This document shows positions 1 through 64,000 of a stretch of DNA of 64,000 nt, piece by piece. The DNA lies in contig JANJGN010000010.1 in NCBI GenBank assembly GCA_026770705.1, positions 89,342,001 to 89,406,000 on the forward strand. The letters run 5' to 3'. The position numbers were made by a program, and so were the translations under genes. The stretch's first letter is position 1. Each line of letters opens with the position of its first letter. The stretch comes from Isurus oxyrinchus. Its lineage: Eukaryota. Under the pieces are notes generated by a model, which made no database searches, was not told where the DNA came from, and saw only the letters and a list, made by a program, of their open reading frames with translations.

Positions 1-837
1 GATTCTGCTATTGTTTGTGTTTGCTTTACAAATGTGGACTGATCTATGTTGATACACATTAAATTGGTTTGTAAAGAGCGAATTAGAGGTTGTAGAGAGA
101 GTCTGTTTGAGCAAAACACAAAAGTGAGCAAAACAGGGAAATTCGGGGACAGTGTGAAACTTGTGCCAACCGTACAATTGATATTATTTCTCTGCCTGAA
201 TGAACAATCATTTGGACATATTCAGTGCAGCACAAAACACTGATAACTGATTGACTAAATGAAGCAGTCAATAGTGCTGGGAATTAGAAAGTTGCCCAAT
301 TTGTACGGACTTTCCGAACAGGCGAGGCAATTGCTGGAAATGCAGAATGAAAGTGCGACCATTACTGATTGGACTTCGCTCAGCATCTCTCCATTGACAC
401 AATGTTGATTTTCAAAATCCAGTGGTACACCGGGCAAAAAGTAGAGCACAGCAACCTGTGTGGAAACATTTAGTATCTTAACCATTGGCGTGTGAACATG
501 AATGTGAAATCCGGAATCATTGTTTCAGATGTGCAGAGCATGAAGATGTCCATTTCTCCAAGGAAGGTTTCTGTCGGTTGAAAACTTATGGAGATGTCAA
601 ATCACATTTTGAATAGGACAGACGACAAATTTCAATACAAATAATCCTGGGAACAGATGCCTAATTATTCAGAAGAACATCCACTTTGTGTCCAAGAATG
701 TGAAGGAGAGGTCTGGAACTTCACATCAACAAACTGTGTCAATTATTGCATAATATCATGCTGGATAATAGATATGATTGACAGCATCCTCTTGTGGCAA
801 ATGTTTGTGTCAGATATTTAATAACTGATACACTTAC

Positions 838-1050
838 CGGGTGATAATATTTGTCCATTGGCTGTACAGGAGCATGTTGTTGTTTCTGTAGTAGTGGGAG
901 TCACTGTTACTGTTGTTGTAGATTCTAGTGTAGTGGTGGGCACTGTAGTGGTTTCACATTTTCCCGTGTACTTCAAAATTTCACAACTCTTAGTACATAG
1001 AGTGAAATTACAGAGGCCGGATTTAACTGCAGAACTCACTATAGCCTGGC
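838..1050 (-). CDS. Repeat exon 1 (divergent; SAVKS, TVPTTTLES)
   Basis: Acceptor tgtcttccag ends at 1051, donor gtaagtg starts at 837; 213 bp, open frame. Confidence 0.9.
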
Positions 1051-4000
1051 CTGGAAGACAAAGGTCAACAAAATGTTTCAAACATCTCATGGCAATTCTT
1101 CACTCAGATATTATATTATTCCACAGGTAAATATACAGGTGGCAGTGACTCATGATTGCCCATTAACAGCTAAGAACAAGGCTCTATGGTCCCAATGAAA
1201 GAAGATTAAACATCAAAGTATTCGCTTGGGCTATTCAAAACATAATTTCCAAAATTTGGCACTCTATTTTTCATCAGCTCATGTTGCATTCAGAACACTG
1301 ATATTTGTATAATGTTGCTAAATCGTCGTATTGGTTCTTGACTTTGGTTTACGTATTTAGACAGAACAAAGGTCAAATGGGATAAAATACATTTATCCTC
1401 TTGTCCAGACTATACTGAGATCCAGAAGATGCAGTATTCCTTTCGGTTGTGCCCCCAAACATTTCCTCACCAGTCAATCTTCAAATCTCTCCCCTGATAG
1501 TATGAGGCAATCCTGAAGTTGTACAATTGAACTGTGGACTCACATTCAAAACTAGAAGAATAACAATCCTATACATTTCAAGATCTGACTTGAAAGGGAG
1601 AAATGTCAAAGCAATATGGAAGTGAAGGTGAGCAGCTCGTGTGGAAGCATTCAGTGTCTTTAACCATTGCTGTGTGAATGTGAATGTGAAATCTGGAATC
1701 ATTATTTCAGATGTGCAGAGCATGACATGTCCATTTCTCCAAGGGCTGCTTCTCTCATTTTCAAACTGACGGAGACGACAGTTCACTTTTCGAAATGGAC
1801 AGCGACAACTTTCATTAGGAAACATTCTAGGAACAGATACCTAATGATTCACAAGAACATCTAGCTTGTGACTAAGAATGTGAAAGAGAGAACTGGAACT
1901 TCATGTCAATAAGCTGTGTCAATTATTGCAGACAATCGTGAAAGATAATTGACCTGATCTTCAGGCTTCTTGTGTGACGAGTGCATGTGTCAGATTTTTA
2001 ATAACGGATACACTTACCGGGTGATAATATTTGTCCATTGGCTGTACAGGAGCATGTTGTTGTTTCTGTAGTGGTTGGAGTTACTGTTACTGTTGTTGCA
2101 GATTCCAGTGTAGTGCTGGGCACTGTGGTGGTTTCACATTTTCCCGTGAACTTCAAAATTTCACAACTATTAGTACATAGAGTGAAATTACAGAGGCCAG
2201 AATTACCTGCAGAACTTACTATAGCCTGGCCTGGAAGACAAAAGTCAGGAAAAGGTTTCAGCCATCTCCTTCCATTCATCACTCTGAGATTACTCTTACC
2301 AACAAAATTAAACATATAGCTGACAGAGCCTCATATTTTGACGTTTAAGAGCTGAGACCAACGCTGAATGTTTAGGACGAAAGAAGATTCCACCTCAAGG
2401 TTAATAGGCATGGACGTGGAAAATATAACGGCCAATATTAGAAGCTAAGTATTTCATGCGCCCCAATTACAGGTCTAACTCTCCTCATTCCAGAATGTTA
2501 AATGATATTGCAATTGTTTGAGGTTGGTTTAAAAATGTGGACTGAACAATGTTGATACATGTTAAATGGGTTTCTAAAGAGCGAATTGGGGGCTGCAGAA
2601 AGCTTCTGTTTAAGCAAAACACAAAAGTGAGCAAAACTTAGAAATTTGGGGACAGTGTGAAAATTATGCCATTCGTTTAACCAATATAATATCTCTGCCT
2701 GAACGAACAATCATATGGACATATTCAGTGCAGAACAATACACTGATAACTGATTGACTAAATGAAGCAGTCAAAAGTGCTGATCATTAGAAAGTTGCCC
2801 AATTTGTACAGACTTTCCAAATAGGCGAGACTTTTTTCTGGAAATGCATAATGAGAGTAAGAACATTAAAGCTTGGACCTCACTCGGTGTCTCTCCATTG
2901 ACACCATGTTGTTTTCCTCAAGTCCAGGGGGACATAGAGCAATAAGTAGAGCGCAGCAACTTGTGTGGACATTTAGTATCTTTAATCTTTGGTGTGTGAA
3001 TGTGAATTTGAAATCTGGAATCACTATTTCAGATGTGCAAAGCATGAAGATGTCCACTTCTCCAAGGGCTGATTCTCTCGGTTGAAAAATAATGGAGACG
3101 TCAAATCACATTTTGAATGGGACAGATGACAAATTTCAATACAAATAATCCTGGGAACAGATGCCTAATTATTCAGAAGAACATCCACTTTGTGTCCAAG
3201 AATGTGAAGGAGAGGTCTGGAACTTCACATCAACAAACTGTCTCAATTATTGCATACACTCATGCTGGATAATAGATATGATTGACAATATCCTCTTGTG
3301 GCAAATGTTTGTGTCAGATATTTAATAACTGATACACTTACCGGGTGACAATATTTGTCCATTGGCTGTACAGGAGCATGTTGTTGTTTCTGTAGTGGTG
3401 GGAGTCACTGTAAATGTTGTTGTAGATTCTAATGTAGTGCTGGGCGCTGTGGTGGTTTCACATTTTCCCGTGTACTTCAAAATTTCACAACTCTTAGTAC
3501 ATAGAGTGAAATTACAGAGGCCGGATTCACCTGCAGAACTGACTATAGCCTGGCCTGGAAGACAAAAGTCAGGAAAAGGTTTCAGCCATCTCCTTCCATT
3601 CATCACTCTGAGATTACTCTTACCAACAAAATTAAACATATAGCTGACAGAGCCTCATATTTTGACATTTAAAAGCTGAGACCAACGCTGAATGTTTAGG
3701 ACGAAAGAAGATTCCACCTCAAGGTTATGGGCATGGACGTGGAAAATATGACGGCCAATATTAGAAGCTAAATATTTCATGAGCTCCAATTGCAGGTCTA
3801 ACAATCCTCTTTCCAGAATGTTAAATGATATTGCAATTGTTTGTGTTTGGTTTACAAATGTGGACTGAACAATGTTGATACACCTTAAATGGGTTTCTAA
3901 AGAGTAAATTGGGGGCTGTAGAAAGAGTCCGTTTGAGCAAAACACAAAAGTGAGCAAAACAGAGGAATTTGGGGACAGTGCGAAACTTGTGCCAACCGTA

Positions 4001-7000: not shown

Positions 7001-10000
7001 AGGCAGGCGTCTCTCGGTTGAAAACTTATGGAGATGTCAAATCACATTTTGAATAGGACAGGTGACAGATTTCAATACAAATAATCCTGGGAACAGATGC
7101 CTAGTTATTCAGAAGAACATCCACTTTGTGTCCAAGAATGTGAAGGAGAGGTCTGGAACTTCACATCAACAAACTGTCTCAAATATTGCATACACTCATG
7201 CTGGATATTAGACGTGATTGGCAGAAGTGTCTTGTGGCAAACGATTGTGCCAGATATTCAATAACTTATACACTTACCGGGTGATAATATTTGTCCATTG
7301 TCTGTACAGGAGCATGTTGTTGTTTCTGTAGTAGTGGGAGTCACTGTTACTGTTGTTGTAGATTGTAGTGTAGTGCTGGGCGCTGTGGTGGTTTCACATT
7401 TTCCCGTGTACTTCAAAATTTCACAACTCTTAGTACATAGAGTGAAATTACAGAGGCCAGATTTACCTGCAGAACTTACTATAGCCTGGCCTGGAAGACA
7501 AAAGTCAGGAAAAGGTTTCAGCCATCTCCTTCCATTCATCACTCTGAGATTACTCTTACCAACAAAATTAAACATATAGCTGACAGAGCCTCATATTTTG
7601 ACATTTAAAAGCTGAGACCAACGCTGAATGTTTAGGACGAAAGAAGATTCCACCTCAAGGTTATAGGCATGGACGTGGAAAATATGACGGCCAATATTAG
7701 AAGCTAAATATTTCATGAGCTCCAATTGCAGGTCTAACAATCCTCTTTCCAGAATGTTAAATGATATTGCAATTGTTTGTGTTTGGTTTACAAATGTGGA
7801 CTGAACAATGTTGATACACCTTAAATGGGTTTCTAAAGAGTAAATTGGGGGCTGTAGAAAGAGTCCGTTTGAGCAAAACACAAAAGTGAGCAAAACAGAG
7901 GAATTTGGGGACAGTGCGAAACTTGTGCCAACCGTACAACTGATATTATGTCTCTGCCTGAATGAACAATCATTTGGACATATTCAGTGCAGCACAAAAC
8001 ACTGATATCTGATTCACTAAAGGAAGCAATCAATAGCGCTGAGCGTTAGAAAATTGCCCAATTTGTGCAAACATTCCGAACAGCCGAGACATTTGCTGGA
8101 AATGCCGAATGAGAGTGCGACCATTACTGATTGGACCTCACTTGGCGTCTCTCCTTTGACACAATGTTGATTTTCAAAATCCAGTGGGACACAGGGCAAC
8201 AAGTAGAGCACAGCAACCTGTGTGGAAACATTTAGTATCTTTAACCTTTGGTGTGTGAATGTGAATGTGAAATCTGGAATCATTGGTTCAGATGTGCAGA
8301 GCATGAAGATGTCCATTTCTCCAAGGGCTGATTCTCTCGGTTGAATATTTATGGTGATGTCAAATCACATTTTGAATGGGACGGACGACAAATTTCAATA
8401 CAAATAATGCTGGGAATGGATGCCTAATTATTCACTAGAACATCGACTTTGTATCCAAGAACGTGAAGGAGAGGTCTGGATCTTCACATCAACAAACTGT
8501 GTCAATTATTGCATACAATCATGTTGGATATTAGACGTGATTGACTGTATTCCCTTGTTGCAAATGATTATGTCAGATATTTAATAATTGATAAACTTAC
8601 CGGGTGATAATATTTGTCCATTGGCTGTACAGGAGCATGTTGTTGTTTCTGTAGTAGTGGGAGTCACTGTAACTGTTGTTGTAGATTCAAGTGTAGTGCT
8701 GGGCGCTGTGGTGGTTTCACATTTTCCCGTGTACTTCAAAATTTCACAATTCTTAGTACATAGAGTGAAATTACAGAGGCCGGATTTACCTGCAGAACTT
8801 ACTATAGCCTGCCCTGGAAGAGAAATATCAGGAGAAGGTTTCAGTCATCTCATACCATTCTTCACTCAGATAACATGTAAAGAGCAAATTGGATGCTGTA
8901 GAACGAGTCTGCTGGTTGAAAATACTAAATTGAGCAAATCAGAAATTTGGGGACAGTGTTAAACTTTTTCCATCCGTACAGCCAATATAATGTCTCTGCC
9001 TGAACGAACAATCATATGGACATATTCAGTGCAGCACAAAACTCTGATAACTGACTGACTAAATGAAGCAGTCAAAAGTGCTGAGCATTAGAAAGTTGCC
9101 CAATTTGTACGGACTTTCCAAACAGGCGAGACCTTTGCTGCAAATGCAGAATGAGAGTACGAACATTACAGCTTGGACCTCGCTCGGTGATTCTCCATTG
9201 ACACAATGTTGCTTTCCTCATTTCAGTGGGACACAGGGCAACAAGTAGAGCACAGCAACCTGTGCGGAAACATTTAGTATCTTTAACCATTGTTGTGTGA
9301 ATGTGAGTGTGAAATCTGGAATCATTATTTCAGATGTGCAGAGCATGAAGATATCCCTTTCTCCAAGGCAGGCGTCTCTCGGTTGAAAACTTATGGAGAT
9401 GTCAAATCACATTTTGAATAGGACAGATGACAGATTTCAATACAAATAATCCTGGGAACAGATGCCTAATTATTCAGAAGAACATCCACTTTGTGTCCAA
9501 GAATGTGAAGGAGAGGTCTGGAACTTCACATCAACAAACTGTCTCAATTATTGCATACACTCATGCTGGATGTTAGACATGATTGGCAGCAGTGTCTTGT
9601 GGCAAACGATTGTGCCAGATATTCAATAACTTATACACTTACCGGGTGATAATATTTGTCCATTGGCTGTACAGGAGCATGTTGTTGTTTCTGTAGTAGT
9701 GGGAGTCACTATTACTGTTGTTGTAGATTCTAGTGTAGTGCTGGGCGCTGTGGTGGTTTCACATTTTCCCGTGTACTTCAAAATTTCACAACTCTTAGTA
9801 CATAGAGTGAAATTACAGAGGCCAGATTCACCTGCAGAACTGACTATAGCCTGGCCTGGAAGACAAAAGTCAGGAAAAGGTTTCAGCCATCTCCTTCCAT
9901 TCATCACTCTGAGATTACTCTTACCAACAAAATTAAACATATAGCTGACAGAGCCTCATATTTTGACATTTAAAAGCTGAGACCAACGCTGAATGTTTAG

Positions 10001-13000
10001 GACGAAAGAAGATTCCACCTCAAGGTTATAGGCATGGACGTGGAAAATATGACGGCCAATATTAGAAGCTAAATATTTCATGAGCTCCAATTGCAGGTCT
10101 AACAATCCTCTTTCCAGAATGTTAAATGATATTGCAATTGTTTGTGTTTGGTTTACAAATGTGGACTGAACAATGTTGATACACCTTAAATGGGTTTCTA
10201 AAGAGTAAATTGGGGGCTGTAGAAAGAGTCCGTTTGAGCAAAACACAAAAGTGAGCAAAACAGAGGAATTTGGGGACAGTGCGAAACTTGTGCCAACCGT
10301 ACAACTGATATTATGTCTCTGCCTGAATGAACAATCATTTGGACATATTCAGTGCAGCACAAAACACTGATATCTGATTCACTAAAGGAAGCAATCAATA
10401 GCGCTGAGCGTTAGAAAATTGCCCAATTTGTGCAAACATTCCGAACAGCCGAGACATTTGCTGGAAATGCCGAATGAGAGTGCGACCATTACTGATTGGA
10501 CCTCACTTGGCGTCTCTCCTTTGACACAATGTTGATTTTCAAAATCCAGTGGGACACAGGGCAACAAGTAGAGCACAGCAACCTGTGTGGAAACATTTAG
10601 TATCTTTAACCTTTGGTGTGTGAATGTGAATGTGAAATCTGGAATCATTGGTTCAGATGTGCAGAGCATGAAGATGTCCATTTCTCCAAGGGCTGATTCT
10701 CTCGGTTGAATATTTAGGGAGATGTCAAATCACATTTTGAATGAGACGGACGACAAATTTCAATACAAATAATCCTGGGAACGGATGCCTAATTATGCAC
10801 TAGAACATTGACTTTGTATCCAAGAACGTGAAGGAGAGGTCTGGATCTTCACATCAACAAACTGTGTCAATTATTGCATACAATCATGTTGGATATTAGA
10901 CGTGATTGACTGTATTCCCTTGTTGCAAATGATTATGTCAGATATTTAATAATTGATACACTTACCGGGTGATAATATTTGTCCATTGGCTGTACAGGAG
11001 CATGTGGTTGTTTCTGTAGTGGTGGGAGTCACTGTTACTGTTGTTGTAGATTCAAGTGTAGTGCTGGGCGCTGTGGTGGTTTCACATTTTCCCGTGTACT
11101 TCAAAATTTCACAACTCTTAGTACATAGAGTGAAATTACAGAGGCCGGATTTACCTGCAGAACTTACTATAGCCTGGCCTGGAAGACAAAAGTCAGGAAA
11201 AGGTTTCAGGCATCTCCTTCCATTCATCCTTCGAATGTTACGCTTAACAACAAAAATCACTACATAGCTGACAGAGCCTCATATTTTGACATTTAATAGC
11301 TAGGACCAACGCTGAAAGTTTAGAGCGAAAGAAGATTCCACCTCAAGGTGAAAGTCATGGATGTGGAAAATATAACGGCCAATATTAGAAGCTAAGTACT
11401 TCATGCGCCCCAATTACAGGTCTAACTCTCCTCATTCCAGAATGTTAAATGATATTGCAATTGTTTGTGTTTGGCTTAAAAATGTGGACTGAACAATGTT
11501 GATACATGTTAAATGGGTTTCTAAAGAGCAAATTGGGGGCTGTAGAAAGAGTCCATTTGAGCAAAACACAAAAGTGAGCAAAACAGAGGAATTTGGGGAC
11601 AGTGTGAAAATTATGCCATTCGTTCAACCAATATAATATCTCTGACTGAACGAACAATCATATGGACATATTCAGTGCAGAACAATACACTGATAACTGA
11701 TTGACATAAGGAAGCAGTCAAAAGTGCTGATCATTAGAAAGTTGCCCAACTTGTACGGACTTTCCAAACAGGCGAGACTTTTTTCTGGAAATGCAGAATG
11801 AGAGTAAGAACATTAAAGCTTGGACCTCACTCGATGTCTCTCCATTGACACCATGTTGTTTTCCTCAAGTCCAGGGGGACATAGAGCAACAAGTAGAGCA
11901 CAGCAACTTGTGTGGACATTTAGTATCTTTAATCTTTGGTGTGTGAATGTGAATTTGAAATCTGGAATCATTATTTCAGATGTGCAGAGCATGAAGATGT
12001 CCACTTCTCCAAGGGCTGATTCTCTCGGTTGAAAAATAATGGAGACGTCAAATCACATTTTGAATGGGACAGATGACAAATTTCAATACAAATAATCCTG
12101 GGAACGGATGCCTAATTATTCAGAAGAACATCCACTTTGTGTCCAAGAATGTGAAGGAGAGGTCTGGAACTTCACATCAACAAACTGTCTCAATTATTGC
12201 AATATATCATGCTTGATAATAGATATGATTGACAGTATCCTCTTGTGGCAAATGTTTGTGTCAGATATTTAATAACTGATACACTTACCGGGTGATAATA
12301 TTTGTCCATTGGCTGTACAGGAGCATGTTGTTGTTTCTGTAGTAGTGGGAGTCACTGTAACTGTTGTTGTAGATTCTAGTGTAGTGCTGGGCGCTGTGGT
12401 GGTTTCACATTTTCCCGTGTACTTCAAAATTTCACAATTCTTAGTACATAGAGTGAAATTACAGAGGCCGGATTTACCTGCAGAACTTACTATAGCCTGC
12501 CCTGGAAGAGAAATATCAGGAGAAGGTTTCAGTCATCTCATACCATTCTTCACTCAGATAACATGTAAAGAGCAAATTGGATGCTGTAGAACGAGTCTGC
12601 TGGTTGAAAATACTAAATTGAGCAAATCAGAAATTTGGGGACAGTGTTAAACTTTTTCCATCCGTACAACCAATATAATGTCTCTGCCTGAACGAACAAT
12701 CATATGGACATATTCAGTGCAGCACAAAACTCTGATAACTGACTGACTAAATGAAGCAGTCAAAAGTGATGAGCATTAGAAAGTTGCCCAATTTGTACGG
12801 ACTTTCCAAACAGGCGAGACCTTTGCTGCAAATGCAGAATGAGAGTACGAACATTACAGCTTGGACCTCACTCGGTGATTCTCCATTGACACAATGTTGC
12901 ATTCCTCATTTCAGTGGGACACAGGGCAACAAGTAGAGCACAGCAACCTGTGCGGAAACATTTAGTATCTTTAACCATTGTTGTGTGAATGTGAGTGTGA

Positions 13001-52000: not shown

Positions 52001-55000
52001 AAGACAAATGTCAGGAGAAGGTTTCAGTCATCTCATACCATTCTTCACTCAGATAACATGTTTACCTCTAGAAAAATGTATAGAACTGACCAGTCAGGCG
52101 TTAAGACAATTAAATGCTAAGTACAAGGCTAAATTTTTACAATGAAAGAAGATTCCAAAGTTAAACCATCAACATCAGCAGCTAAATATTTCCTCAGCTC
52201 TGATCGCACGTATAAACCTCCTCGTTTGGAAAGTTAAATTTTTCTGCTGCTGTTGTGTTTGGTTTACAAAATGGGACAGAACAATGTTGAAACAGGTTAA
52301 CTGGGTTTGTAAAGAGCAAATTGGATGCTGTAGAACGAGTCTACTGGTTGAAAATACTAAATTGAGCAAATCAGAAATTTGGGGACAGTGTTAAACTTTT
52401 TCCATCCGTACAACCAATATAATGTCTCTGCCTGAACGAACAATCATACGGACATATTCAGTGCAGCACAAAACTCTGATAACTGACTGACTAAATGAAG
52501 CAGTCAAAAGTGCTGAGCATTAGAAAGTTGCCCAATTTGTACGGACTTTCCAAACAGGCGAGATTTTTGCTGCAAATGCAGAATGAGAGTACGAACATTA
52601 AAGCTTGGACCTCGCTCGGTGATTCTCCATTGACACAATGTTGCTTTCCTCATTTCAGTGGGACACAGGGCAACAAGTAGAGCACAGCAACCTGTGCGGA
52701 AACATTTAGTATCTTTAACCATTGTTGTGTGAATGTGAGTGTGTAATCTGGAATCATTATTTCAGATGTGCAGAGCATGAAGATATCCCTTTCTCCAAGG
52801 CAGGCGTCTCTCGGTTGAAAACTTATGGAGATGTCAAATCACATTTTGAATACGACAGATGACAGATTTCAATACAAATAATCCTGGGAACAGATGCCTA
52901 ATTATTCAGAAGAACATCCACTTTGTGTCCAAGAATATGAAGGAGAGGTCTGGAACTTCACATCAACAAACTGTGTCAATTATTGCATACACTCATGCTG
53001 GATATTAGACATGAATGGCAGTAGTGTCTTGTGGCAAACGATTGTGCCAGATATTCAATAACTTATACACTTACCGGGTGATAATATTTGTCCACTGGCT
53101 GTACAGGAGCATGTTGTTGTTTCTGTAGTAGTGGGAGTCACTGTTACTGTTGTTGTAGATTCTAGTGTAGTGCTGGGCGCTGTGGTGGTTTCACATTTTC
53201 CCGTGTACTTCAAAATTTCACAACTCTTAGTACATAGAGTGAAATTACAGAGCCCAGATTTACCTGCAGAACTGACTATAGCCTGACCTGGAAGACAAAA
53301 GTCAGGAAAAGGTTTCAGGCATCCCCTTCCATTGATCCTTCTAATATTACGCTTACCAACAAAAATCAATATATAGCTGACAGAGCCTCATATTTTGACA
53401 TTTAAGAGCTAACACCAACGCTGAAAGTTTAGAATAAAAGAAGATTCCACCTCTAGGTGAAATTCATGGGTCTGGAAAATATGACGGCCAATATTAGAAG
53501 CTAAATACTTCATGCACCCCGATTACAGGTCTAACTCTCCTCATTCCAGAATGTTAAATGATATTGCAATTGTTTGTGTTTGGTTTAAAAATGTGGACTG
53601 AACAATGTTGATACATGTTAAATGGGTTTCTAAAGAGCGAATTGGGGGCTGCAGAGAGCTTCTGTTTGAGCAAAACACAAAAGTGAGCGAAACAGAGAAA
53701 TTTGGGGACAGTGTGAAAATTATGCCATTCGTTCAACGAATATAATATCTCTGACTGAACGAACAATCATATGGACATATTCAGTGCAGAACAATACACT
53801 GATAACTGATTGACATAAGGAAGCAGTCAAAAGTGCTGATCATTAGAAAGTTGCCCAACTTGTATGGACTTTCCAAACAGGCGAGACTTTTTTCTGGAAA
53901 TGCAGAATGAGAGTAAGAACATTAAAGCTTGGACCTCACTCGATGTCTCTCCATTGACACCATGTTGTTTTCCTCAAGTCCAGGGGGACATAGAGCAACA
54001 AGTAGAGCACAGCAACTTGTGTGGACATTTAGTATCTTTAATCTTTGGTGTGTGAATGTGAATTTGAAATCTGGAATCATTATTTCAGATGTGCAGAGCA
54101 TGAAGATGTTCACTTCTCCAAGGGCTGATTCTCTCGGTTGAAAAATAATGGAGACGTCAAATCACATTTTGAATGGGACAGATGACAGATTTCAATACAA
54201 ATAATCCTGGGAACAGATGCCTAATTATTCAGAAGAACATCCACTTTGTGTCCAAGAATGTGAAGGAGAGGTCTGGAACTTCACATCAACAAACTGTCTC
54301 AATTATTGCATAATATCATGCTTGATAATAGATATGATTGACAGTATCCTCTTGTGGCAAATGTTTGTGTCAGATATTTAATAACTGATACACTTACCGG
54401 GTGATAATATTTGTCCATTGGCTGTACAGGAGCATGTTGTTGTTTCTGTAGTAGTGGGAGTCACTGTTACTGTTGTTGTAGATTCGAGTGATGTGGTGGG
54501 CGTTGTGGTGGTTTCACATTTTCCCGTGAAGTTCAAAATTTCACAACTCTTAATACATAGAGTGAAATTACAGAGGCCGGATTTACCTGCAGAACTCACT
54601 ATAGCCTGCCCTGGAAGACAAATGTCAGGAGAAGGTTTCAGTCATCTCATACCATTCTTCACTCAGATAACATGTTTACCTCTAGAAAAATGTATAGAAC
54701 TGACCAGTCTGGCGTTAAGACAATTAAATGCTAAGTATAAGGCTAAATTTTTACAATGAAAGAAGATTCCAAAGTTAAACCATCAACATCAGCAGCTAAA
54801 TATTTCCTCAGCTCTGATCGCACGTATAAACCTCCTCGTTTGGAAAGTTAAATTTTTCTGCTGCTGTTGTGTTTGGTTTACAAAATGGGACAGAACAATG
54901 TTGAAACAGGTTAACTGGGTTTGTAAAAGAGCAAATTGGATGCTGTAGAACGAGTCTACTGGTTGAAAATACTAAATTGAGCAAATCAGAAATTTGGGGA

Positions 55001-58000
55001 CAGTGTTAAACTTTTTCCATCCGTACAACCAATATAATGTCTCTGCCTGAACGAACAATCATACGGACATATTCAGTGCAGCACAAAACTCTGATAACTG
55101 ACTGACTAAATGAAGCAGTCAAAAGTGCTGAGCATTAGAAAGTTGCCCAATTTGTACGGACTTTCCAAACAGGCGAGACCTTTGCTGCAAATGCAGAATG
55201 AGAGTACGAACATTAAAGCTTGGACCTCGCTCGGTGATTCTCCATTGACACAATGTTGCATTCCTCATTTCAGTGGGACACAGGGCAACAAGTAGAGCAC
55301 AGCAACCTGTGCGGAAACATTTAGTATCTTTAACCATTGTTGTGTGAATGTGAGTGTGTAATCTGGAATCATTATTTCAGATGTGCAGAGCATGAAGATA
55401 TCCCTTTCTCCAAGGCAGGCGTCTCTCGGTTGAAAACTTATGGAGATGTCAAATCACATTTTGAATACGACAGATGACAGATTTCAATACAAATAATCCT
55501 GGGAACAGATGCCTAATTATTCAGAAGAACATCCACTTTGTGTCCAAGAATATGAAGGAGAGGTCTGGAACTTCACATCAACAAACTGTGTCAATTATTG
55601 CATACACTCATGCTGGTTATTAGACATGATTGGCAGTAGTGTCTTGTGGCAAACGATTGTGCCAGATATTCAATAACTTATACACTTACCGGGTGATAAT
55701 ATTTGTCCACTGGCTGTACAGGAGCATGTTGTTGTTTCTGTAGTAGTGGGAGTCACTGTTACTGTTGTTGTAGATTCTAGTGTAGTGCTGGGCGCTGTGG
55801 TGGTTTCACATTTTCCCGTGTACTTCAAAATTTCACAACTCTTAGTACATAGAGTGAAATTACAGAGCCCAGATTTACCTGCAGAACTGACTATAGCCTG
55901 GCCTGGAAGACAAAAGTCAGGAAAAGGTTTCAGGCATCCCCTTCCATTGATCCTTCTAATATTACGCTTACCAACAAAAATCAATATATAGCTGACAGAG
56001 CCTCATATTTTGACATTTAAGAGCTAACACCAACGCTGAAAGTTTAGAATAAAAGAAGATTCCACCTCTAGGTGAAATTCATAGGTCTGGAAAATATGAC
56101 GGCCAATATTAGAAGCTAAATACTTCATGCACCCCGATTACAGGTCTAACTCTCCTCATTCCAGAATGTTAAATGATATTGCAATTGTTTGTGTTTGGTT
56201 TAAAAATGTGGACTGAACAATGTTGATACATGTTAAATGGGTTTCTAAAGAGCGAATTGGGGGCTGCAGAGAGCTTCTGTTTGAGCAAAACACAAAAGTG
56301 AGCGAAACAGAGAAATTTGGGGACAGTGTGAAAATTATGCCATTCGTTCAACGAATATAATATCTCTGACTGAACGAACAATCATATGGACATATTCAGT
56401 GCAGAACAATACACTGATAACTGATTGACATAAGGAAGCAGTCAAAAGTGCTGATCATTAGAAAGTTGCCCAACTTGTATGGACTTTCCAAACAGGCGAG
56501 ACTTTTTTCTGGAAATGCAGAATGAGAGTAAGAACATTAAAGCTTGGACCTCACTCGATGTCTCTCCATTGACACCATGTTGTTTTCCTCAAGTCCAGGG
56601 GGACATAGAGCAACAAGTAGAGCACAGCAACTTGTGTGGACATTTAGTATCTTTAATCTTTGGTGTGTGAATGTGAATTTGAAATCTGGAATCATTATTT
56701 CAGATGTGCAGAGCATGAAGATGTTCACTTCTCCAAGGGCTGATTCTCTCGGTTGAAAAATAATGGAGACGTCAAATCACATTTTGAATGGGACAGATGA
56801 CAGATTTCAATACAAATAATCCTGGGAACAGATGCCTAATTATTCAGAAGAACATCCACTTTGTGTCCAAGAATGTGAAGGAGAGGTCTGGAACTTCACA
56901 TCAACAAACTGTCTCAATTATTGCATAATATCATGCTTGATAATAGATATGATTGACAGTATCCTCTTGTGGCAAATGTTTGTGTCAGATATTTAATAAC
57001 TGATACACTTACCGGGTGATAATATTTGTCCATTGGCTGTACAGGAGCATGTTGTTGTTTCTGTAGTAGTGGGAGTCACTGTTACTGTTGTTGTAGATTC
57101 GAGTGATGTGGTGGGCGTTGTGGTGGTTTCACATTTTCCCGTGAAGTTCAAAATTTCACAACTCTTAATACATAGAGTGAAATTACAGAGGCCGGATTTA
57201 CCTGCAGAACTCACTATAGCCTGCCCTGGAAGACAAATGTCAGGAGAAGGTTTCAGTCATCTCATACCATTCTTCACTCAGATAACATGTTTACCTCTAG
57301 AAAAATGTATAGAACTGACCAGTCTGGCGTTAAGACAATTAAATGCTAAGTATAAGGCTAAATTTTTACAATGAAAGAAGATTCCAAAGTTAAACCATCA
57401 ACATCAGCAGCTAAATATTTCCTCAGCTCTGATCGCACGTATAAACCTCCTCGTTTGGAAAGTTAAATTTTTCTGCTGCTGTTGTGTTTGGTTTACAAAA
57501 TGGGACAGAACAATGTTGAAACAGGTTAACTGGGTTTGTAAAAGAGCAAATTGGATGCTGTAGAACGAGTCTACTGGTTGAAAATACTAAATTGAGCAAA
57601 TCAGAAATTTGGGGACAGTGTTAAACTTTTTCCATCCGTACAACCAATATAATGTCTCTGCCTGAACGAACAATCATACGGACATATTCAGTGCAGCACA
57701 AAACTCTGATAACTGACTGACTAAATGAAGCAGTCAAAAGTGCTGAGCATTAGAAAGTTGCCCAATTTGTACGGACTTTCCAAACAGGCGAGACTTTTGC
57801 TGCAAATGCAGAATGAGAGTACGAACATTAAAGCTTGGACCTCGCTCGGTGATTCTCCATTGACACAATGTTGCATTCCTCATTTCAGTGGGACACAGGG
57901 CAACAAGTAGAGCACAGCAACCTGTGCGGAAACATTTAGTATCTTTAACCATTGTTGTGTGAATGTGAGTGTGTAATCTGGAATCATTATTTCAGATGTG

Positions 58001-61000
58001 CAGAGCATGAAGATATCCCTTTCTCCAAGGCAGGCGTCTCTCGGTTGAAAACTTATGGAGATGTCAAATCACATTTTGAATACGACAGATGACAGATTTC
58101 AATACAAATAATCCTGGGAACAGATGCCTAATTATTCAGAAGAACATCCACTTTGTGTCCAAGAATATGAAGGAGAGGTCTGGAACTTCACATCAACAAA
58201 CTGTGTCAATTATTGCATACACTCATGCTGGTTATTAGACATGATTGGCAGTAGTGTCTTGTGGCAAACGATTGTGCCAGATATTCAATAACTTATACAC
58301 TTACCGGGTGATAATATTTGTCCACTGGCTGTACAGGAGCATGTTGTTGTTTCTGTAGTAGTGGGAGTCACTGTTACTGTTGTTGTAGATTCTAGTGTAG
58401 TGCTGGGCGCTGTGGTGGTTTCACATTTTCCCGTGTACTTCAAAATTTCACAACTCTTAGTACATAGAGTGAAATTACAGAGCCCAGATTTACCTGCAGA
58501 ACTGACTATAGCCTGGCCTGGAAGACAAAAGTCAGGAAAAGGTTTCAGGCATCCCCTTCCATTGATCCTTCTAATATTACGCTTACCAACAAAAATCAAT
58601 ATATAGCTGACAGAGCCTCATATTTTGACATTAAAGAGCTAACACCAACGCTGAAAGTTTAGAATAAAAGAAGATTCCACCTCTAGGTGAAATTCATGGG
58701 TCTGGAAAATATGACGGCCAATATTAGAAGCTAAATACTTCATGCACCCCGATTACAGGTCTAACTCTCCTCATTCCAGAATGTTAAATGATATTGCAAT
58801 TGTTTGTGTTTGGTTTAAAAATGTGGACTGAACAATGTTGATACATGTTAAATGGGTTTCTAAAGAGCGAATTGGGGGCTGCAGAGAGCTTCTGTTTGAG
58901 CAAAACACAAAAGTGAGCGAAACAGAGAAATTTGGGGACAGTGTGAAAATTATGCCATTCGTTCAACGAATATAATATCTCTGACTGAACGAACAATCAT
59001 ATGGACATATTCAGTGCAGAACAATACACTGATAACTGATTGACATAAGGAAGCAGTCAAAAGTGCTGATCATTAGAAAGTTGCCCAACTTGTATGGACT
59101 TTCCAAACAGGCGAGACTTTTTTCTGGAAATGCAGAATGAGAGTAAGAACATTAAAGCTTGGACCTCACTCGATGTCTCTCCATTGACACCATGTTGTTT
59201 TCCTCAAGTCCAGGGGGACATAGAGCAACAAGTAGAGCACAGCAACTTGTGTGGACATTTAGTATCTTTAATCTTTGGTGTGTGAATGTGAATTTGAAAT
59301 CTGGAATCATTATTTCAGATGTGCAGAGCATGAAGATGTTCACTTCTCCAAGGGCTGATTCTCTCGGTTGAAAAATAATGGAGACGTCAAATCACATTTT
59401 GAATGGGACAGATGACAGATTTCAATACAAATAATCCTGGGAACAGATGCCTAATTATTCAGAAGAACATCCACTTTGTGTCCAAGAATGTGAAGGAGAG
59501 GTCTGGAACTTCACATCAACAAACTGTCTCAATTATTGCATAATATCATGCTTGATAATAGATATGATTGACAGTATCCTCTTGTGGCAAATGTTTGTGT
59601 CAGATATTTAATAACTGATACACTTACCGGGTGATAATATTTGTCCATTGGCTGTACAGGAGCATGTTGTTGTTTCTGTAGTAGTGGGAGTCACTGTTAC
59701 TGTTGTTGTAGATTCGAGTGATGTGGTGGGCGTTGTGGTGGTTTCACATTTTCCCGTGAAGTTCAAAATTTCACAACTCTTAATACATAGAGTGAAATTA
59801 CAGAGGCCGGATTTACCTGCAGAACTCACTATAGCCTGCCCTGGAAGACAAATGTCAGGAGAAGGTTTCAGTCATCTCATACCATTCTTCACTCAGATAA
59901 CATGTTTACCTCTAGAAAAATGTATAGAACTGACCAGTCTGGCGTTAAGACAATTAAATGCTAAGTATAAGGCTAAATTTTTACAATGAAAGAAGATTCC
60001 AAAGTTAAACCATCAACATCAGCAGCTAAATATTTCCTCAGCTCTGATCGCACGTATAAACCTCCTCGTTTGGAAAGTTAAATTTTTCTGCTGCTGTTGT
60101 GTTTGGTTTACAAAATGGGACAGAACAATGTTGAAACAGGTTAACTGGGTTTGTAAAAGAGCAAATTGGATGCTGTAGAACGAGTCTACTGGTTGAAAAT
60201 ACTAAATTGAGCAAATCAGAAATTTGGGGACAGTGTTAAACTTTTTCCATCCGTACAACCAATATAATGTCTCTGCCTGAACGAACAATCATACGGACAT
60301 ATTCAGTGCAGCACAAAACTCTGATAACTGACTGACTAAATGAAGCAGTCAAAAGTGCTGAGCATTAGAAAGTTGCCCAATTTGTACGGACTTTCCAAAC
60401 AGGCGAGACTTTTGCTGCAAATGCAGAATGAGAGTACGAACATTAAAGCTTGGACCTCGCTCGGTGATTCTCCATTGACACAATGTTGCATTCCTCATTT
60501 CAGTGGGACACAGGGCAACAAGTAGAGCACAGCAACCTGTGCGGAAACATTTAGTATCTTTAACCATTGTTGTGTGAATGTGAGTGTGTAATCTGGAATC
60601 ATTATTTCAGATGTGCAGAGCATGAAGATATCCCTTTCTCCAAGGCAGGCGTCTCTCGGTTGAAAACTTATGGAGATGTCAAATCACATTTTGAATACGA
60701 CAGATGACAGATTTCAATACAAATAATCCTGGGAACAGATGCCTAATTATTCAGAAGAACATCCACTTTGTGTCCAAGAATATGAAGGAGAGGTCTGGAA
60801 CTTCACATCAACAAACTGTGTCAATTATTGCATACACTCATGCTGGTTATTAGACATGATTGGCAGTAGTGTCTTGTGGCAAACGATTGTGCCAGATATT
60901 CAATAACTTATACACTTACCGGGTGATAATATTTGTCCACTGGCTGTACAGGAGCATGTTGTTGTTTCTGTAGTAGTGGGAGTCACTGTTACTGTTGTTG

Positions 61001-63747
61001 TAGATTCTAGTGTAGTGCTGGGCGCTGTGGTGGTTTCACATTTTCCCGTGTACTTCAAAATTTCACAACTCTTAGTACATAGAGTGAAATTACAGAGCCC
61101 AGATTTACCTGCAGAACTGACTATAGCCTGGCCTGGAAGACAAAAGTCAGGAAATGGTTTCAGGCATCCCCTTCCATTGATCCTTCTAATATTACGCTTA
61201 CCAACAAAAATCAATATATAGCTGACAGAGCCTCATATTTTGACATTTAAGAGCTAACACCAACGCTGAAAGTTTAGAATAAAAGAAGATTCCACCTCTA
61301 GGTGAAATTCATGGGTCTGGAAAATATGACGGCCAATATTAGAAGCTAAATACTTCATGCACCCCGATTACAGGTCTAACTCTCCTCATTCCAGAATGTT
61401 AAATGATATTGCAATTGTTTGTGTTTGGTTTAAAAATGTGGACTGAACAATGTTGATACATGTTAAATGGGTTTCTAAAGAGCGAATTGGGGGCTGCAGA
61501 GAGCTTCTGTTTGAGCAAAACACAAAAGTGAGCGAAACAGAGAAATTTGGGGACAGTGTGAAAATTATGCCATTCGTTCAACGAATATAATATCTCTGAC
61601 TGAACGAACAATCATATGGACATATTCAGTGCAGAACAATACACTGATAACTGATTGACATAAGGAAGCAGTCAAAAGTGCTGATCATTAGAAAGTTGCC
61701 CAACTTGTATGGACTTTCCAAACAGGCGAGACTTTTTTCTGGAAATGCAGAATGAGAGTAAGAACATTAAAGCTTGGACCTCACTCGATGTCTCTCCATT
61801 GACACCATGTTGTTTTCCTCAAGTCCAGGGGGACATAGAGCAACAAGTAGAGCACAGCAACTTGTGTGGACATTTAGTATCTTTAATCTTTGGTGTGTGA
61901 ATGTGAATTTGAAATCTGGAATCATTATTTCAGATGTGCAGAGCATGAAGATGTTCACTTCTCCAAGGGCTGATTCTCTCGGTTGAAAAATAATGGAGAC
62001 GTCAAATCACATTTTGAATGGGACAGATGACAGATTTCAATACAAATAATCCTGGGAACAGATGCCTAATTATTCAGAAGAACATCCACTTTGTGTCCAA
62101 GAATGTGAAGGAGAGGTCTGGAACTTCACATCAACAAACTGTCTCAATTATTGCATAATATCATGCTTGATAATAGATATGATTGACAGTATCCTCTTGT
62201 GGCAAATGTTTGTGTCAGATATTTAATAACTGATACACTTACCGGGTGATAATATTTGTCCATTGGCTGTACAGGAGCATGTTGTTGTTTCTGTAGTAGT
62301 GGGAGTCACTGTTACTGTTGTTGTAGATTCGAGTGATGTGGTGGGCGTTGTGGTGGTTTCACATTTTCCCGTGAAGTTCAAAATTTCACAACTCTTAATA
62401 CATAGAGTGAAATTACAGAGGCCGGATTTACCTGCAGAACTCACTATAGCCTGCCCTGGAAGACAAATGTCAGGAGAAGGTTTCAGTCATCTCATACCAT
62501 TCTTCACTCAGATAACATGTTTACCTCTAGAAAAATGTATAGAACTGACCAGTCTGGCGTTAAGACAATTAAATGCTAAGTATAAGGCTAAATTTTTACA
62601 ATGAAAGAAGATTCCAAAGTTAAACCATCAACATCAGCAGCTAAATATTTCCTCAGCTCTGATCGCACGTATAAACCTCCTCGTTTGGAAAGTTAAATTT
62701 TTCTGCTGCTGTTGTGTTTGGTTTACAAAATGGGACAGAACAATGTTGAAACAGGTTAACTGGGTTTGTAAAAGAGCAAATTGGATGCTGTAGAACGAGT
62801 CTACTGGTTGAAAATACTAAATTGAGCAAATCAGAAATTTGGGGACAGTGTTAAACTTTTTCCATCCGTACAACCAATATAATGTCTCTGCCTGAACGAA
62901 CAATCATACGGACATATTCAGTGCAGCACAAAACTCTGATAACTGACTGACTAAATGAAGCAGTCAAAAGTGCTGAGCATTAGAAAGTTGCCCAATTTGT
63001 ACGGACTTTCCAAACAGGCGAGACTTTTGCTGCAAATGCAGAATGAGAGTACGAACATTAAAGCTTGGACCTCGCTCGGTGATTCTCCATTGACACAATG
63101 TTGCATTCCTCATTTCAGTGGGACACAGGGCAACAAGTAGAGCACAGCAACCTGTGCGGAAACATTTAGTATCTTTAACCATTGTTGTGTGAATGTGAGT
63201 GTGTAATCTGGAATCATTATTTCAGATGTGCAGAGCATGAAGATATCCCTTTCTCCAAGGCAGGCGTCTCTCGGTTGAAAACTTATGGAGATGTCAAATC
63301 ACATTTTGAATACGACAGATGACAGATTTCAATACAAATAATCCTGGGAACAGATGCCTAATTATTCAGAAGAACATCCACTTTGTGTCCAAGAATATGA
63401 AGGAGAGGTCTGGAACTTCACATCAACAAACTGTGTCAATTATTGCATACACTCATGCTGGTTATTAGACATGATTGGCAGTAGTGTCTTGTGGCAAACG
63501 ATTGTGCCAGATATTCAATAACTTATACACTTACCGGGTGATAATATTTGTCCACTGGCTGTACAGGAGCATGTTGTTGTTTCTGTAGTAGTGGGAGTCA
63601 CTGTTACTGTTGTTGTAGATTCTAGTGTAGTGCTGGGCGCTGTGGTGGTTTCACATTTTCCCGTGTACTTCAAAATTTCACAACTCTTAGTACATAGAGT
63701 GAAATTACAGAGCCCAGATTTACCTGCAGAACTGACTATAGCCTGGC
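838..63747 (-). CDS. Internal part of a giant mucin-like gene (gel-forming MUC2/MUC5-like): 50 spliced 213-bp exons, about 3,550 aa of alternating Thr-rich and 6-Cys modules; both ends lie outside the window
   Basis: Every copy has a polypyrimidine+CAG acceptor and a G|GTAAGT donor 213 bp apart, phase 1-1, with no stops or indels seen. The spacer is 20/27 Thr/Ser/Pro. The junction-spanning CxC..NG...SPG..I.......G.C....C...C.I....G.C pattern resembles the post-PTS Cys module of gel-forming mucins (recalled, not searched). Confidence 0.85.
2018..2230 (-). CDS. Repeat exon 2 (AGNS, CTNSC, KFT, ESAT; B-like intron)
   Basis: AG/GT flanked, 213 bp, open frame. Confidence 0.9.
3342..3554 (-). CDS. 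Repeat exon 3 (class A; AGES, TTFT)
   Basis: AG/GT flanked, 213 bp, open frame. Confidence 0.9.
4665..4877 (-). CDS. Repeat exon 4 (B/D-like intron; CSCRANG)
   Basis: Acceptor tctttcag, donor gtaagt, 213 bp. Confidence 0.9.
5987..6199 (-). CDS. Repeat exon 5 (class C, full-length intron; CKFT, TTFT)
   Basis: Acceptor tctcttccag|GG, donor gtaagt, 213 bp. Confidence 0.9.
7278..7490 (-). CDS. Repeat exon 6 (class A; TLQS, CTDNG)
   Basis: AG/GT flanked, 213 bp, open frame. Confidence 0.9.
8601..8813 (-). CDS. Repeat exon 7 (class c; CTKNC)
   Basis: AG/GT flanked (donor gtaagttt), 213 bp. Confidence 0.9.
9643..9855 (-). CDS. Repeat exon 8 (class A; AGES, VIV)
   Basis: AG/GT flanked, 213 bp, open frame. 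Confidence 0.9.
10966..11178 (-). CDS. Repeat exon 9 (class B; consensus)
   Basis: AG/GT flanked, 213 bp, open frame. Confidence 0.9.
12289..12501 (-). CDS. Repeat exon 10 (class c; CTKNC)
   Basis: AG/GT flanked, 213 bp. Confidence 0.9.
13331..13543 (-). CDS. Repeat exon 11 (class A; VIV)
   Basis: AG/GT flanked, 213 bp, open frame. Confidence 0.9.
14654..14866 (-). CDS. Repeat exon 12 (class c)
   Basis: AG/GT flanked (donor gtaagttt), 213 bp. Confidence 0.9.
15696..15908 (-). CDS. Repeat exon 13 (class A; AGES)
   Basis: Acceptor tgtctgccag, donor gtaagt, 213 bp. Confidence 0.9.
17019..17231 (-). CDS. Repeat exon 14 (class B)
   Basis: AG/GT flanked, 213 bp, open frame. Confidence 0.9.
18342..18554 (-). 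CDS. Repeat exon 15 (class c)
   Basis: AG/GT flanked, 213 bp. Confidence 0.9.
19384..19596 (-). CDS. Repeat exon 16 (class A; AGES, CSFT, VIV)
   Basis: AG/GT flanked, 213 bp, open frame. Confidence 0.9.
20707..20919 (-). CDS. Repeat exon 17 (class B)
   Basis: AG/GT flanked, 213 bp, open frame. Confidence 0.9.
22030..22242 (-). CDS. Repeat exon 18 (class c; KSSLC)
   Basis: AG/GT flanked, 213 bp. Confidence 0.9.
23072..23284 (-). CDS. Repeat exon 19 (class A; VIV)
   Basis: AG/GT flanked, 213 bp, open frame. Confidence 0.9.
24395..24607 (-). CDS. Repeat exon 20 (class c)
   Basis: AG/GT flanked (donor gtaagttt), 213 bp. Confidence 0.9.
25437..25649 (-). CDS. Repeat exon 21 (class A; AGES, VIV)
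   Basis: AG/GT flanked, 213 bp, open frame. Confidence 0.9.
26760..26972 (-). CDS. Repeat exon 22 (class B)
   Basis: AG/GT flanked, 213 bp, open frame. Confidence 0.9.
28083..28295 (-). CDS. Repeat exon 23 (class C; CIKSC, KFT, TTPTTSLES)
   Basis: AG/GT flanked, 213 bp, open frame. Confidence 0.9.
29375..29587 (-). CDS. Repeat exon 24 (class D; CTASG)
   Basis: AG/GT flanked, 213 bp, open frame. Confidence 0.9.
30698..30910 (-). CDS. Repeat exon 25 (class A; AGES)
   Basis: AG/GT flanked, 213 bp, open frame. Confidence 0.9.
32022..32234 (-). CDS. Repeat exon 26 (class B)
   Basis: AG/GT flanked, 213 bp, open frame. Confidence 0.9.
33345..33557 (-). CDS. Repeat exon 27 (class C; ILNFT)
   Basis: AG/GT flanked, 213 bp, open frame. 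Confidence 0.9.
34637..34849 (-). CDS. Repeat exon 28 (class D)
   Basis: AG/GT flanked, 213 bp, open frame. Confidence 0.9.
35960..36172 (-). CDS. Repeat exon 29 (class A; AGES, VIV)
   Basis: AG/GT flanked, 213 bp, open frame. Confidence 0.9.
37284..37496 (-). CDS. Repeat exon 30 (class B)
   Basis: AG/GT flanked, 213 bp, open frame. Confidence 0.9.
38607..38819 (-). CDS. Repeat exon 31 (class C; ILNFT)
   Basis: AG/GT flanked, 213 bp, open frame. Confidence 0.9.
39900..40112 (-). CDS. Repeat exon 32 (class D)
   Basis: AG/GT flanked, 213 bp, open frame. Confidence 0.9.
41223..41435 (-). CDS. Repeat exon 33 (class A; ILSS|G)
   Basis: AG/GT flanked, 213 bp, open frame. Confidence 0.9.
42547..42759 (-). 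CDS. Repeat exon 34 (class B)
   Basis: AG/GT flanked, 213 bp, open frame. Confidence 0.9.
43868..44080 (-). CDS. Repeat exon 35 (class C; ILNFT)
   Basis: AG/GT flanked, 213 bp, open frame. Confidence 0.9.
45161..45373 (-). CDS. Repeat exon 36 (class D)
   Basis: AG/GT flanked, 213 bp, open frame. Confidence 0.9.
46484..46696 (-). CDS. Repeat exon 37 (class A; ILSS|G)
   Basis: AG/GT flanked, 213 bp, open frame. Confidence 0.9.
47808..48020 (-). CDS. Repeat exon 38 (class B)
   Basis: AG/GT flanked, 213 bp, open frame. Confidence 0.9.
49131..49343 (-). CDS. Repeat exon 39 (class A; AGES, CSFT)
   Basis: AG/GT flanked, 213 bp, open frame. Confidence 0.9.
50461..50673 (-). CDS. Repeat exon 40 (class B)
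   Basis: AG/GT flanked, 213 bp, open frame. Confidence 0.9.
51784..51996 (-). CDS. Repeat exon 41 (class C; KFT)
   Basis: AG/GT flanked, 213 bp, open frame. Confidence 0.9.
53075..53287 (-). CDS. Repeat exon 42 (class D; junction Gly codon G|GT)
   Basis: AG/GT flanked, 213 bp, open frame. Confidence 0.9.
54398..54610 (-). CDS. Repeat exon 43 (class C; ILNFT)
   Basis: AG/GT flanked, 213 bp, open frame. Confidence 0.9.
55690..55902 (-). CDS. Repeat exon 44 (class D)
   Basis: AG/GT flanked, 213 bp, open frame. Confidence 0.9.
57013..57225 (-). CDS. Repeat exon 45 (class C)
   Basis: AG/GT flanked, 213 bp, open frame. Confidence 0.9.
58305..58517 (-). CDS. Repeat exon 46 (class D)
   Basis: AG/GT flanked, 213 bp, open frame. 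Confidence 0.9.
59628..59840 (-). CDS. Repeat exon 47 (class C)
   Basis: AG/GT flanked, 213 bp, open frame. Confidence 0.9.
60920..61132 (-). CDS. Repeat exon 48 (class D)
   Basis: AG/GT flanked, 213 bp, open frame. Confidence 0.9.
62243..62455 (-). CDS. Repeat exon 49 (class C)
   Basis: AG/GT flanked, 213 bp, open frame. Confidence 0.9.
63535..63747 (-). CDS. Repeat exon 50 (class D)
   Basis: AG/GT flanked, 213 bp, open frame. Confidence 0.9.
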
Positions 63748-64000
63748 CTGGAAGACAAAAGTCAGGAAAAGGTTTCAGGCATCCCCTTCCATTGATCCTT
63801 CTAATATTACGCTTACCAACAAAAATCAATATATAGCTGACAGAGCCTCATATTTTGACATTTAAGAGCTAACACCAACGCTGAAAGTTTAGAATAAAAG
63901 AAGATTCCACCTCTAGGTGAAATTCATGGGTCTGGAAAATATGACGGCCAATATTAGAAGCTAAATACTTCATGCACCCCGATTACAGGTCTAACTCTCC

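Follow-up and report, generated by a model that had tools for sequence, protein, structure and literature searches.

Fifty tandem 213-bp exons in Isurus oxyrinchus very likely encode a beaded core of an elasmobranch gel-forming mucin

A 64,000-nucleotide stretch of Isurus oxyrinchus DNA, referred to here as the window, carries on its minus strand 50 complete tandem exons that very likely are the central exons of an elasmobranch gel-forming mucin with the MUC2/MUC5 layout. Judging by homologous proteins, the array would lie between a conventional PTS region and a VWD4-VWC-cystine-knot end. The predicted product is a chain of all-β beads of 44 residues and six cysteines, each carrying an N-glycosylation sequon, with linkers of 27 residues between them. 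The coding status of the array appears firmer still than this account as a whole.

A fuzzy search for the donor motif across the 64-kb window returned 50 minus-strand matches, every one marking a 213-bp block with AG before it and GT after it, and a pyrimidine tract and AG precede the 213 bases at all 50 sites. Together with the intron termini, this search bore out the number, length, phase, AG/GT boundaries and coordinates of the exons proposed in an initial annotation made from the sequence alone. The features of the window are as follows.

838..63747, minus strand: exon array of 50 symmetric phase 1-1 coding exons of 213 bp, separated by 49 introns of 829-1117 bp; coding length 10,650 bases, or 3,550 codons
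Exons 1-10, minus strand, 5′ ends (each exon running 213 bp downward): 63747, 62455, 61132, 59840, 58517, 57225, 55902, 54610, 53287, 51996
Exons 11-20, minus strand, 5′ ends: 50673, 49343, 48020, 46696, 45373, 44080, 42759, 41435, 40112, 38819
Exons 21-30, minus strand, 5′ ends: 37496, 36172, 34849, 33557, 32234, 30910, 29587, 28295, 26972, 25649
Exons 31-40, minus strand, 5′ ends: 24607, 23284, 22242, 20919, 19596, 18554, 17231, 15908, 14866, 13543
Exons 41-50, minus strand, 5′ ends: 12501, 11178, 9855, 8813, 7490, 6199, 4877, 3554, 2230, 1050
63535..63747, minus strand: exon 1, first complete exon of the window, AG/GT bounded and open
50461..50673, minus strand: exon 11, representative unit and search query, 70-aa peptide
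Exon 11, codons 1-31: rear part of a bead, four cysteines, N-glycosylation sequon at codon 14
Exon 11, codons 32-58: Thr/Ser linker, 67% S+T and 7% P
Exon 11, codons 59-70: 12-residue front of the following bead (C-x-C)
838..1050, minus strand: exon 50, last complete exon of the window
53075..63747, minus strand: higher-order repeat block 1 (exons 1-9), two-exon unit of 2,615 bp, from k-mer periods and intron clustering
25437..53287, minus strand: higher-order repeat block 2 (exons 9-30), mostly a four-exon unit of ~5,262 bp, from k-mer periods and intron clustering
7278..25649, minus strand: higher-order repeat block 3 (exons 30-45), two-exon (2,365 bp) and three-exon (3,688 bp) units with the 829-bp intron variant, from k-mer periods and intron clustering
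838..7490, minus strand: diverged end units with private alleles (exons 45-50), probable 3′ edge of the array
1051..2017, minus strand: intron 49, 967 bp, ~35% divergence from every other intron, middle part unique
1..837, minus strand: partial intron 50, no more than 89.6% like any other intron, leaving the window
63748..64000, minus strand: 3′ end of the intron preceding exon 1, same as interior introns

All 49 complete introns start with GTAAGT and end in YAG (TTCCAG in 47, TGCCAG in one and TTTCAG in one), and their measured lengths agree with the 0.83-1.12 kb first estimated: six of 829 bp, one of 967 bp, ten of 1078-1080 bp and 32 of 1108-1117 bp. The window is a single repeat throughout (GC 39-40%) with k-mer periods of 1,042, 1,292, 1,323, 2,365, 2,615, 3,688 and 5,262 bp. 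Clustering of the introns gave three main types that are 12-17% apart, and 42 of the 49 introns and 22 of the 50 exons are distinct sequences. The earlier proposal that an exon-plus-intron cassette was amplified is supported. Unequal crossing-over yields higher-order patterns of this kind, and the pattern seen here would be its expected outcome. Tandem Repeats Finder, whose longest period is 500, reported nothing in the window, and an Rfam search of positions 1-8000 gave no match, the remainder being the same repeat.

The array had been described as running off both ends of the window. Repeat DNA does reach both, but only the high end resembles the interior. There, all 253 bases are the same as in interior introns, and the array therefore goes on upstream of exon 1. 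At the low end, intron 49 matches the other introns only over 387 bp at its start (79%) and 38 bp at its end. This divergence, with that of partial intron 50, suggests that the 3′ edge of the array is near, so that the low-coordinate end is probably close to the array edge. The ~540 bp of intron 49 (1051-2017) that are unlike any other array intron could represent an old edge intron or an insertion. Separately, the six 829-bp introns (7491-25436) look like a subtype of the 1,078-bp intron minus ~280 bp that was spread by later duplications, and this subtype could serve as a marker for the order of amplification events.

The 71-aa period of linker plus small disulfide domain put forward at the outset was recovered as a 27-aa linker and a 44-residue bead with six cysteines, whose pairing is predicted. 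Each bead extends from a C-x-C near the end of one exon to codon 31 of the next, and the intron cuts it after residue 12. The exon does contain both linker and domain, as first suggested, but not as a linker followed by an intact domain: it begins with the final 31 residues of one bead, continues through the linker and stops 12 residues into the following bead. Because the intron splits the bead, the exon is permuted relative to the domain. The simplest reading of six cysteines per bead is complete pairing within it, and we infer that the six pair inside each bead. An N-F-T sequon occurs at codon 14 in 47 of the 50 exons and a second sequon in seven. The entire joined product is 39.5% S+T and 4.2% P. 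The composition of the linker lies above both thresholds of a published PTS criterion (at least 40% S+T and more than 5% P; PMC4948705), and these Thr-rich linkers are expected to bear O-glycans.

The window lacks a unique flanking exon, and the gene context was therefore taken from other records. Searches with the exon peptide found five matches among 200 candidates and eight among 1.84 billion representatives, and a search with the repeat region found six among 7,996 candidates. In total, 14 homologous proteins were collected, all of them automatic gene predictions, and ten were traced to eight elasmobranchs from the genera Heptranchias, Leucoraja, Chiloscyllium, Scyliorhinus, Heterodontus, Pristis, Carcharodon and Cetorhinus. 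They cover galeomorph sharks, a squalomorph shark and batoids (lineage checked for three). None of the ten organism-assigned homologues comes from a bony vertebrate or a chimaera, in searches that lose distant relatives. Sharks and rays have retained the spliced peptide, at a mean of 79% over the rear 31 residues. The 70-aa peptide of exon 11 occurs letter-for-letter twice in the Carcharodon carcharias model P0014 and unchanged in none of the other ten proteins compared, which by itself points to a lamniform shark as the probable source of the window. These homologues, with the open minus-strand frame, corroborate the mucin identity and strand assigned initially.

The layout of the homologues indicates where the array sits. 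Models from Pristis, Leucoraja, Carcharodon and Cetorhinus have three VWD domains, a PTS region, the array, VWD4 and VWC. Outside the window, three N-terminal VWD-C8-TIL assemblies were found in P0008, P0009, P0011, P0013, P0014 and P0015, and VWD4/C8/VWC after the array in P0005, P0008, P0013, P0014 and P0015. In Scyliorhinus P0005, one exon unit is followed by a terminal cysteine module, a short PTS stretch and a D4 assembly that matches MUC2-C (7QCU, E 2e-127) and aligns as far as the end of that structure. The flanks foreseen for the array are thus present in homologues on both sides, except that no Pfam match to a cystine knot was reported in them. The array does not make up the mucin core by itself: a cysteine-free PTS stretch of 327-833 aa lies ahead of it in five full-length models. 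A stretch of 464-785 aa with 60-62% S+T precedes the array in homologues, and the PTS stretch contained no cysteine in the three homologues counted. The array was therefore added behind a conventional PTS region. No Pfam match to CysD (Mucin2_WxxW) was obtained in any of the 14 homologues scanned, whose models may be incomplete, and WxxW motifs were absent from all four homologues counted. Since 15 of 26 Xenopus mucins also lack CysD (PMC4948705), this absence does not exclude the gel-forming mucin family. For Crisp, dsrm and Toxin_R_bind_C, the homologues gave weak Pfam rows without a passing stretch, and these were set aside as repeat or chance effects.

The gene is probably a Muc5-type gel-forming mucin, on the basis of N-terminal bit scores. 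The Carcharodon N-terminus scored 1578 against MUC5AC, 1567 against MUC5B and 1396 against MUC2, and that of Chiloscyllium scored 1709, 1581 and 1420, respectively; in the two proteins tested (P0009 and P0014), these pairwise scores favour MUC5AC/5B by ~170 bits or more. It is possible, with limited likelihood, that the gene is instead the Muc2 orthologue of elasmobranchs, in line with most of the NCBI names. Six full or repeat-only models carry the name mucin-2 or mucin-2-like, and the C-terminal part has MUC2-C as its best PDB match, though no MUC5 C-terminus was in that match list. The N-terminal scores speak against this assignment, as does the name mucin-5B-like given to the Cetorhinus model. 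The 'mucin-2-like' names of P0008, P0009, P0014 and P0015 may be wrong.

Elasmobranch models named 'mucin-2-like' (Carcharodon, Heterodontus, Leucoraja, Pristis, Heptranchias, Chiloscyllium and Cetorhinus) have the same unit at the same position and are orthologues. They are often partial, and the window adds at least 50 copies and structure at the level of exons. Their repeat unit is 65-74 aa long, with ~3-37 repeats per model. The Carcharodon model has 10 repeat modules against at least 50 in the window, and copy number therefore varies by assembly, allele or species. One alternative is that only some exons are used, through routine skipping, or that the locus is a truncated or silent paralogue, so that no 50-bead protein is made. 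Symmetric exons are freely skippable, the database models hold few repeats, those of Heterodontus and Heptranchias and one further model consist of repeats only, and homogenisation could preserve young copies even if selection did not act on every one. However, consensus splice sites, frame and cysteines are intact in all 50 copies, even in those whose introns are 12-17% different, and the Leucoraja model P0013 has 22 repeats together with both ends. We consider this account improbable.

It is also very unlikely that the copy number is partly an assembly artefact caused by an over-expanded repeat. Several introns do match another copy exactly, and the Carcharodon model with the exact exon peptide stops at 10 repeats. 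Against this stand the number of distinct introns and exons, their arrangement in three higher-order patterns with diverged end units, and a Heterodontus model with 37 periods of 71 aa.

Coding function was assessed from the variation among copies. The joined exon frame has no stop in 3,549 codons, compared to 261 and 257 stops in the other two frames, which substantiates the open product of more than 3,500 aa claimed for the locus, and reading through into the intron meets a stop after six codons in each exon. Cysteines occupy exon codons 13, 18, 22, 31, 59 and 61 in all 50 copies. Diversity and gaps were compared in 48 units, the odd last intron being excluded. Mean pairwise difference was 0.034 for exons and 0.105 for introns, so that variation in the exons is about one third of that in their introns, and the least variable 213-column intron window sampled reached 0.066. 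The exons contain no indels, compared to 16 gap runs in the 48 introns (Poisson P ~0.05; this and the following P values are indicative only, because array copies are related). The pN/pS ratio of 0.40 (pS 0.058, pN 0.023) shows constraint, though not strong constraint, on the encoded sequence. Synonymous changes account for 17 of 40 variant alleles (binomial P 0.014, or 0.03 with transition bias), and the finding that no copy has a stop or has gained or lost a cysteine has a P of 0.006 for 41 random changes and of 0.0002 at the intron rate. As a control, none of 909 intron windows of 213 columns was both gap-free and open in all 48 copies, and 14 were gap-free. Openness alone proves little, since the antisense frame across the exon is also open in 49 of the 50 copies. 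A non-coding macrosatellite derived from a mucin exon, its open frame a relic, would suit the satellite-like DNA with higher-order repeats and the open antisense frame, but is hardly credible beside the exon-specific drop in diversity, the lack of indels, the synonymous excess, the fixed cysteines and a spliced peptide kept in sharks and rays.

The antisense open frame is likely a shadow of the Thr-rich sense frame. Its ORFs on the plus strand lie at 825-1130, 2005-2319, 3329-3643 and equivalent positions, with lengths of 101-124 aa in the first 6 kb.

The 44-residue frame of the bead also accommodates, gap-free, two other modules of the homologues: one with five cysteines ahead of the PTS region, and a terminal one with six behind the array. 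When the rear 31 residues are compared, the repeat is 17% identical to the pre-PTS module and 32% to the terminal one, and the set of six cysteines is common to the repeat and the terminal module only. At the sequence level, these comparisons show that the bead is related to the module normally found, in single copy, behind the PTS region. Position, the gap-free 44-aa alignment and a match of the Chiloscyllium terminal module to the human MUC5AC pre-PTS module (8QSP, E 3e-8) indicate that this post-PTS module is probably the 'MUC11p15-type' domain. PMC6780288 places a domain of that name after the MUC5B central exon and PMC4414189 places it before the MUC5AC mucin domain; in structural papers, the pre-PTS copy seems to be included in E3. 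When long proteins were searched with the terminal module, none of 30 candidates matched, and the link to mammalian modules therefore rests on the PDB match and position. Single-exon queries had no significant Pfam or PDB match (MUCL1 at E 0.14, a virus capsid at E ≥ 1.1). The VWCN domain of MUC2, which is the renamed D4N domain (PMC10082768), was ruled out as the bead, as it sits after the terminal module and a short PTS stretch.

The fold of the bead was modelled with AlphaFold2 on a 182-aa Chiloscyllium fragment, using an alignment of nine rows of which one was misaligned. The model (mean pLDDT 62.7, pTM 0.37) has a hairpin and a three-stranded sheet in each module and disordered linkers, with pLDDT of 69-84 in 10-residue blocks over the two modules. 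Fibronectin type I modules led both fold searches, weakly: the best Foldseek hit had an E of 5e-3, with none at E ≤ 0.001, and the other search gave a best Z of 5.1 over 48 residues at 2.2 Å, under the level that the tool deems typical of unrelated models. The bead is modelled as a fibronectin-type-I-like all-β sheet. Like fibronectin type I and VWF-type E modules, it is predicted to combine two- and three-stranded antiparallel sheets in ~45 residues. It differs from them in the spacing of its six cysteines and matches them at 10-20% identity, with weak structural scores; its copies are spaced by mucin linkers, whereas those modules are packed in tandem. A search of the ESM Atlas gave leads only, with one feature match of 0.76 and structure matches of TM ≤ 0.40, mostly to VWC-bearing proteins. 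Prediction of a bead-bead dimer (Chiloscyllium module, without an alignment) scored 0.02 against a mark of 0.32, which is evidence neither way.

We propose that a single intron interrupted the post-PTS module of the ancestral gene. If a duplication then broke on both sides of that intron, within the flanking Thr-rich exon sequence, it would have produced an exon composed of rear bead, short linker and front bead. This would have happened once, ahead of the shark-ray split of more than 250 million years ago. Unequal crossing-over would then have amplified and homogenised exon-plus-intron units within each lineage. A tree was built from 50 modules of exactly 44 residues (44 columns); the split modules of the window, the terminal module of Leucoraja and any module with an indel were not part of it. 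All 42 repeat-type modules fell on one side of a 100/99 branch, largely grouped by species, which fits a single origin before the split followed by homogenisation. Additionally, human MUC5AC and MUC5B central exons finish in a 12-aa non-PTS piece (PMC9712336). This piece agrees in length with the bead front, and by that match of length suggests that the intron is ancestral. The linker is too low in complexity for the proposed breakpoints to be located.

The 213-bp exon was also considered as a miniature of the giant central exon. This was rejected, as the human MUC5AC central exon begins with PTS and the chicken MUC2 pre-PTS module seems whole on a 198-bp exon (read from 10-nt junctions).

In the product, internally paired beads would lengthen and stiffen the mucin arm by ~7.5 nm per period, or ~0.37 µm for 50 periods, assuming 20 Å per module and 2 Å per glycosylated residue (values from PMC7599080). 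The array would present regularly spaced, folded, N-glycosylated patches. Because all junctions are alike, any number of exons could be skipped with frame and whole beads kept.

Comparison with known mucins places this architecture. The human mucin domain is encoded in one exon (PMC9712336 and PMC6269512), and chicken MUC2 spreads its PTS region over exons 32-45, with CysD and irregular exons (PMC3549977), in agreement with the contrast drawn initially between one-exon human and multi-exon non-mammalian PTS regions. Vertebrate MUC5AC, MUC5B and MUC2 and the elasmobranch homologues have the same order, (VWD-C8-TIL)x3, PTS, VWD4, VWC, and in both a small cysteine module sits on either side of the PTS region. 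Human mucins have CysD inserts and a single post-PTS module, whereas in the shark array at least 50 copies of the module occupy separate exons, and the homologues yielded no CysD. The closest architectural precedent is Xenopus tropicalis MucXS/Otogl, a gel-forming mucin with a multi-exon core and no typical CysD. Its core alternates 39 cysteine-rich and 34 PTS repeats (PMC5789918). However, the MucXS repeat has CCxxxxC plus three more cysteines and the shark bead no adjacent CC, and MucXS has three VWD domains and no VWD4, which the elasmobranch homologues have. MucXS was absent from the homologue matches. On the different cysteine motif, homology between bead and MucXS repeat was rejected, and MucXS looks like a mucin that works alike yet was independently built. 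Like the array, chicken Muc13 has one near-identical repeat per exon, and splice control of its length has been proposed (PMC1552070). It is a transmembrane SEA mucin with 20-aa PTS-only repeats, and neither it nor chicken MUC2 repeats a folded module split by an intron.

Multi-exon PTS/Cys mucin cores are therefore known, and what is apparently undescribed is the elasmobranch-wide amplification of a module on permuted exons. No description of such a post-PTS module amplification was found in the literature searched, which comprised mostly titles and starts of abstracts and few subscription papers. The array would be another, apparently independent way of building a beads-on-a-string mucin core, in which an intron-centred cassette was amplified and no giant exon had to grow, with a layout common to sharks and rays, whose mucins are little studied (PMC10707392). 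The small module is also present in human MUC2/MUC5 mucins and can be expressed and tested alone, and splice-controlled mucin length, as proposed in PMC1552070, becomes testable in a gel-forming mucin. More speculatively, and rather unlikely as a whole, a mucin free of CysD may have turned its post-PTS module, once and before the shark-ray split, into interaction beads that replace CysD in cross-linking or setting pore size. Splicing could then set the bead number from zero (an ordinary mucin) to more than 50 in a single animal, and the array would offer a handle on the function of a module carried by all MUC2/MUC5 mucins.

Gene models of the locus are probably truncated or collapsed and possibly misnamed Muc2. 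The suspicion that such a locus would be mis-annotated is partly justified, with loose names (mucin-2-like, DAN4-like, hypothetical) and fewer copies, although NCBI models already hold the spliced repeats. P0004, P0003 and P0005 are mucin fragments named 'cell wall protein DAN4-like', 'uncharacterized' and 'hypothetical', and P0005 is seemingly fused to an unrelated C-terminal half. Several gene models read through into the intron at a repeat junction. P0003 (Leucoraja), P0012 (Heterodontus) and P0006 end in the same intron read-through as the window exons, and skate and horn shark therefore have the same donor site.

Finally, each exon has a possible in-frame 69-nt internal intron, for example at 50594-50662 (minus strand) in exon 11. 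Its donor after codon 3 reads GTAAGT in 19 of the 50 exons and GTGAGT in 10, its acceptor TTGAAG after codon 26 is present in 43, and 22 have both. As three cysteines would be lost, such an intron is probably a prediction artefact and less probably an exitron; the Cetorhinus model skips the stretch twice.
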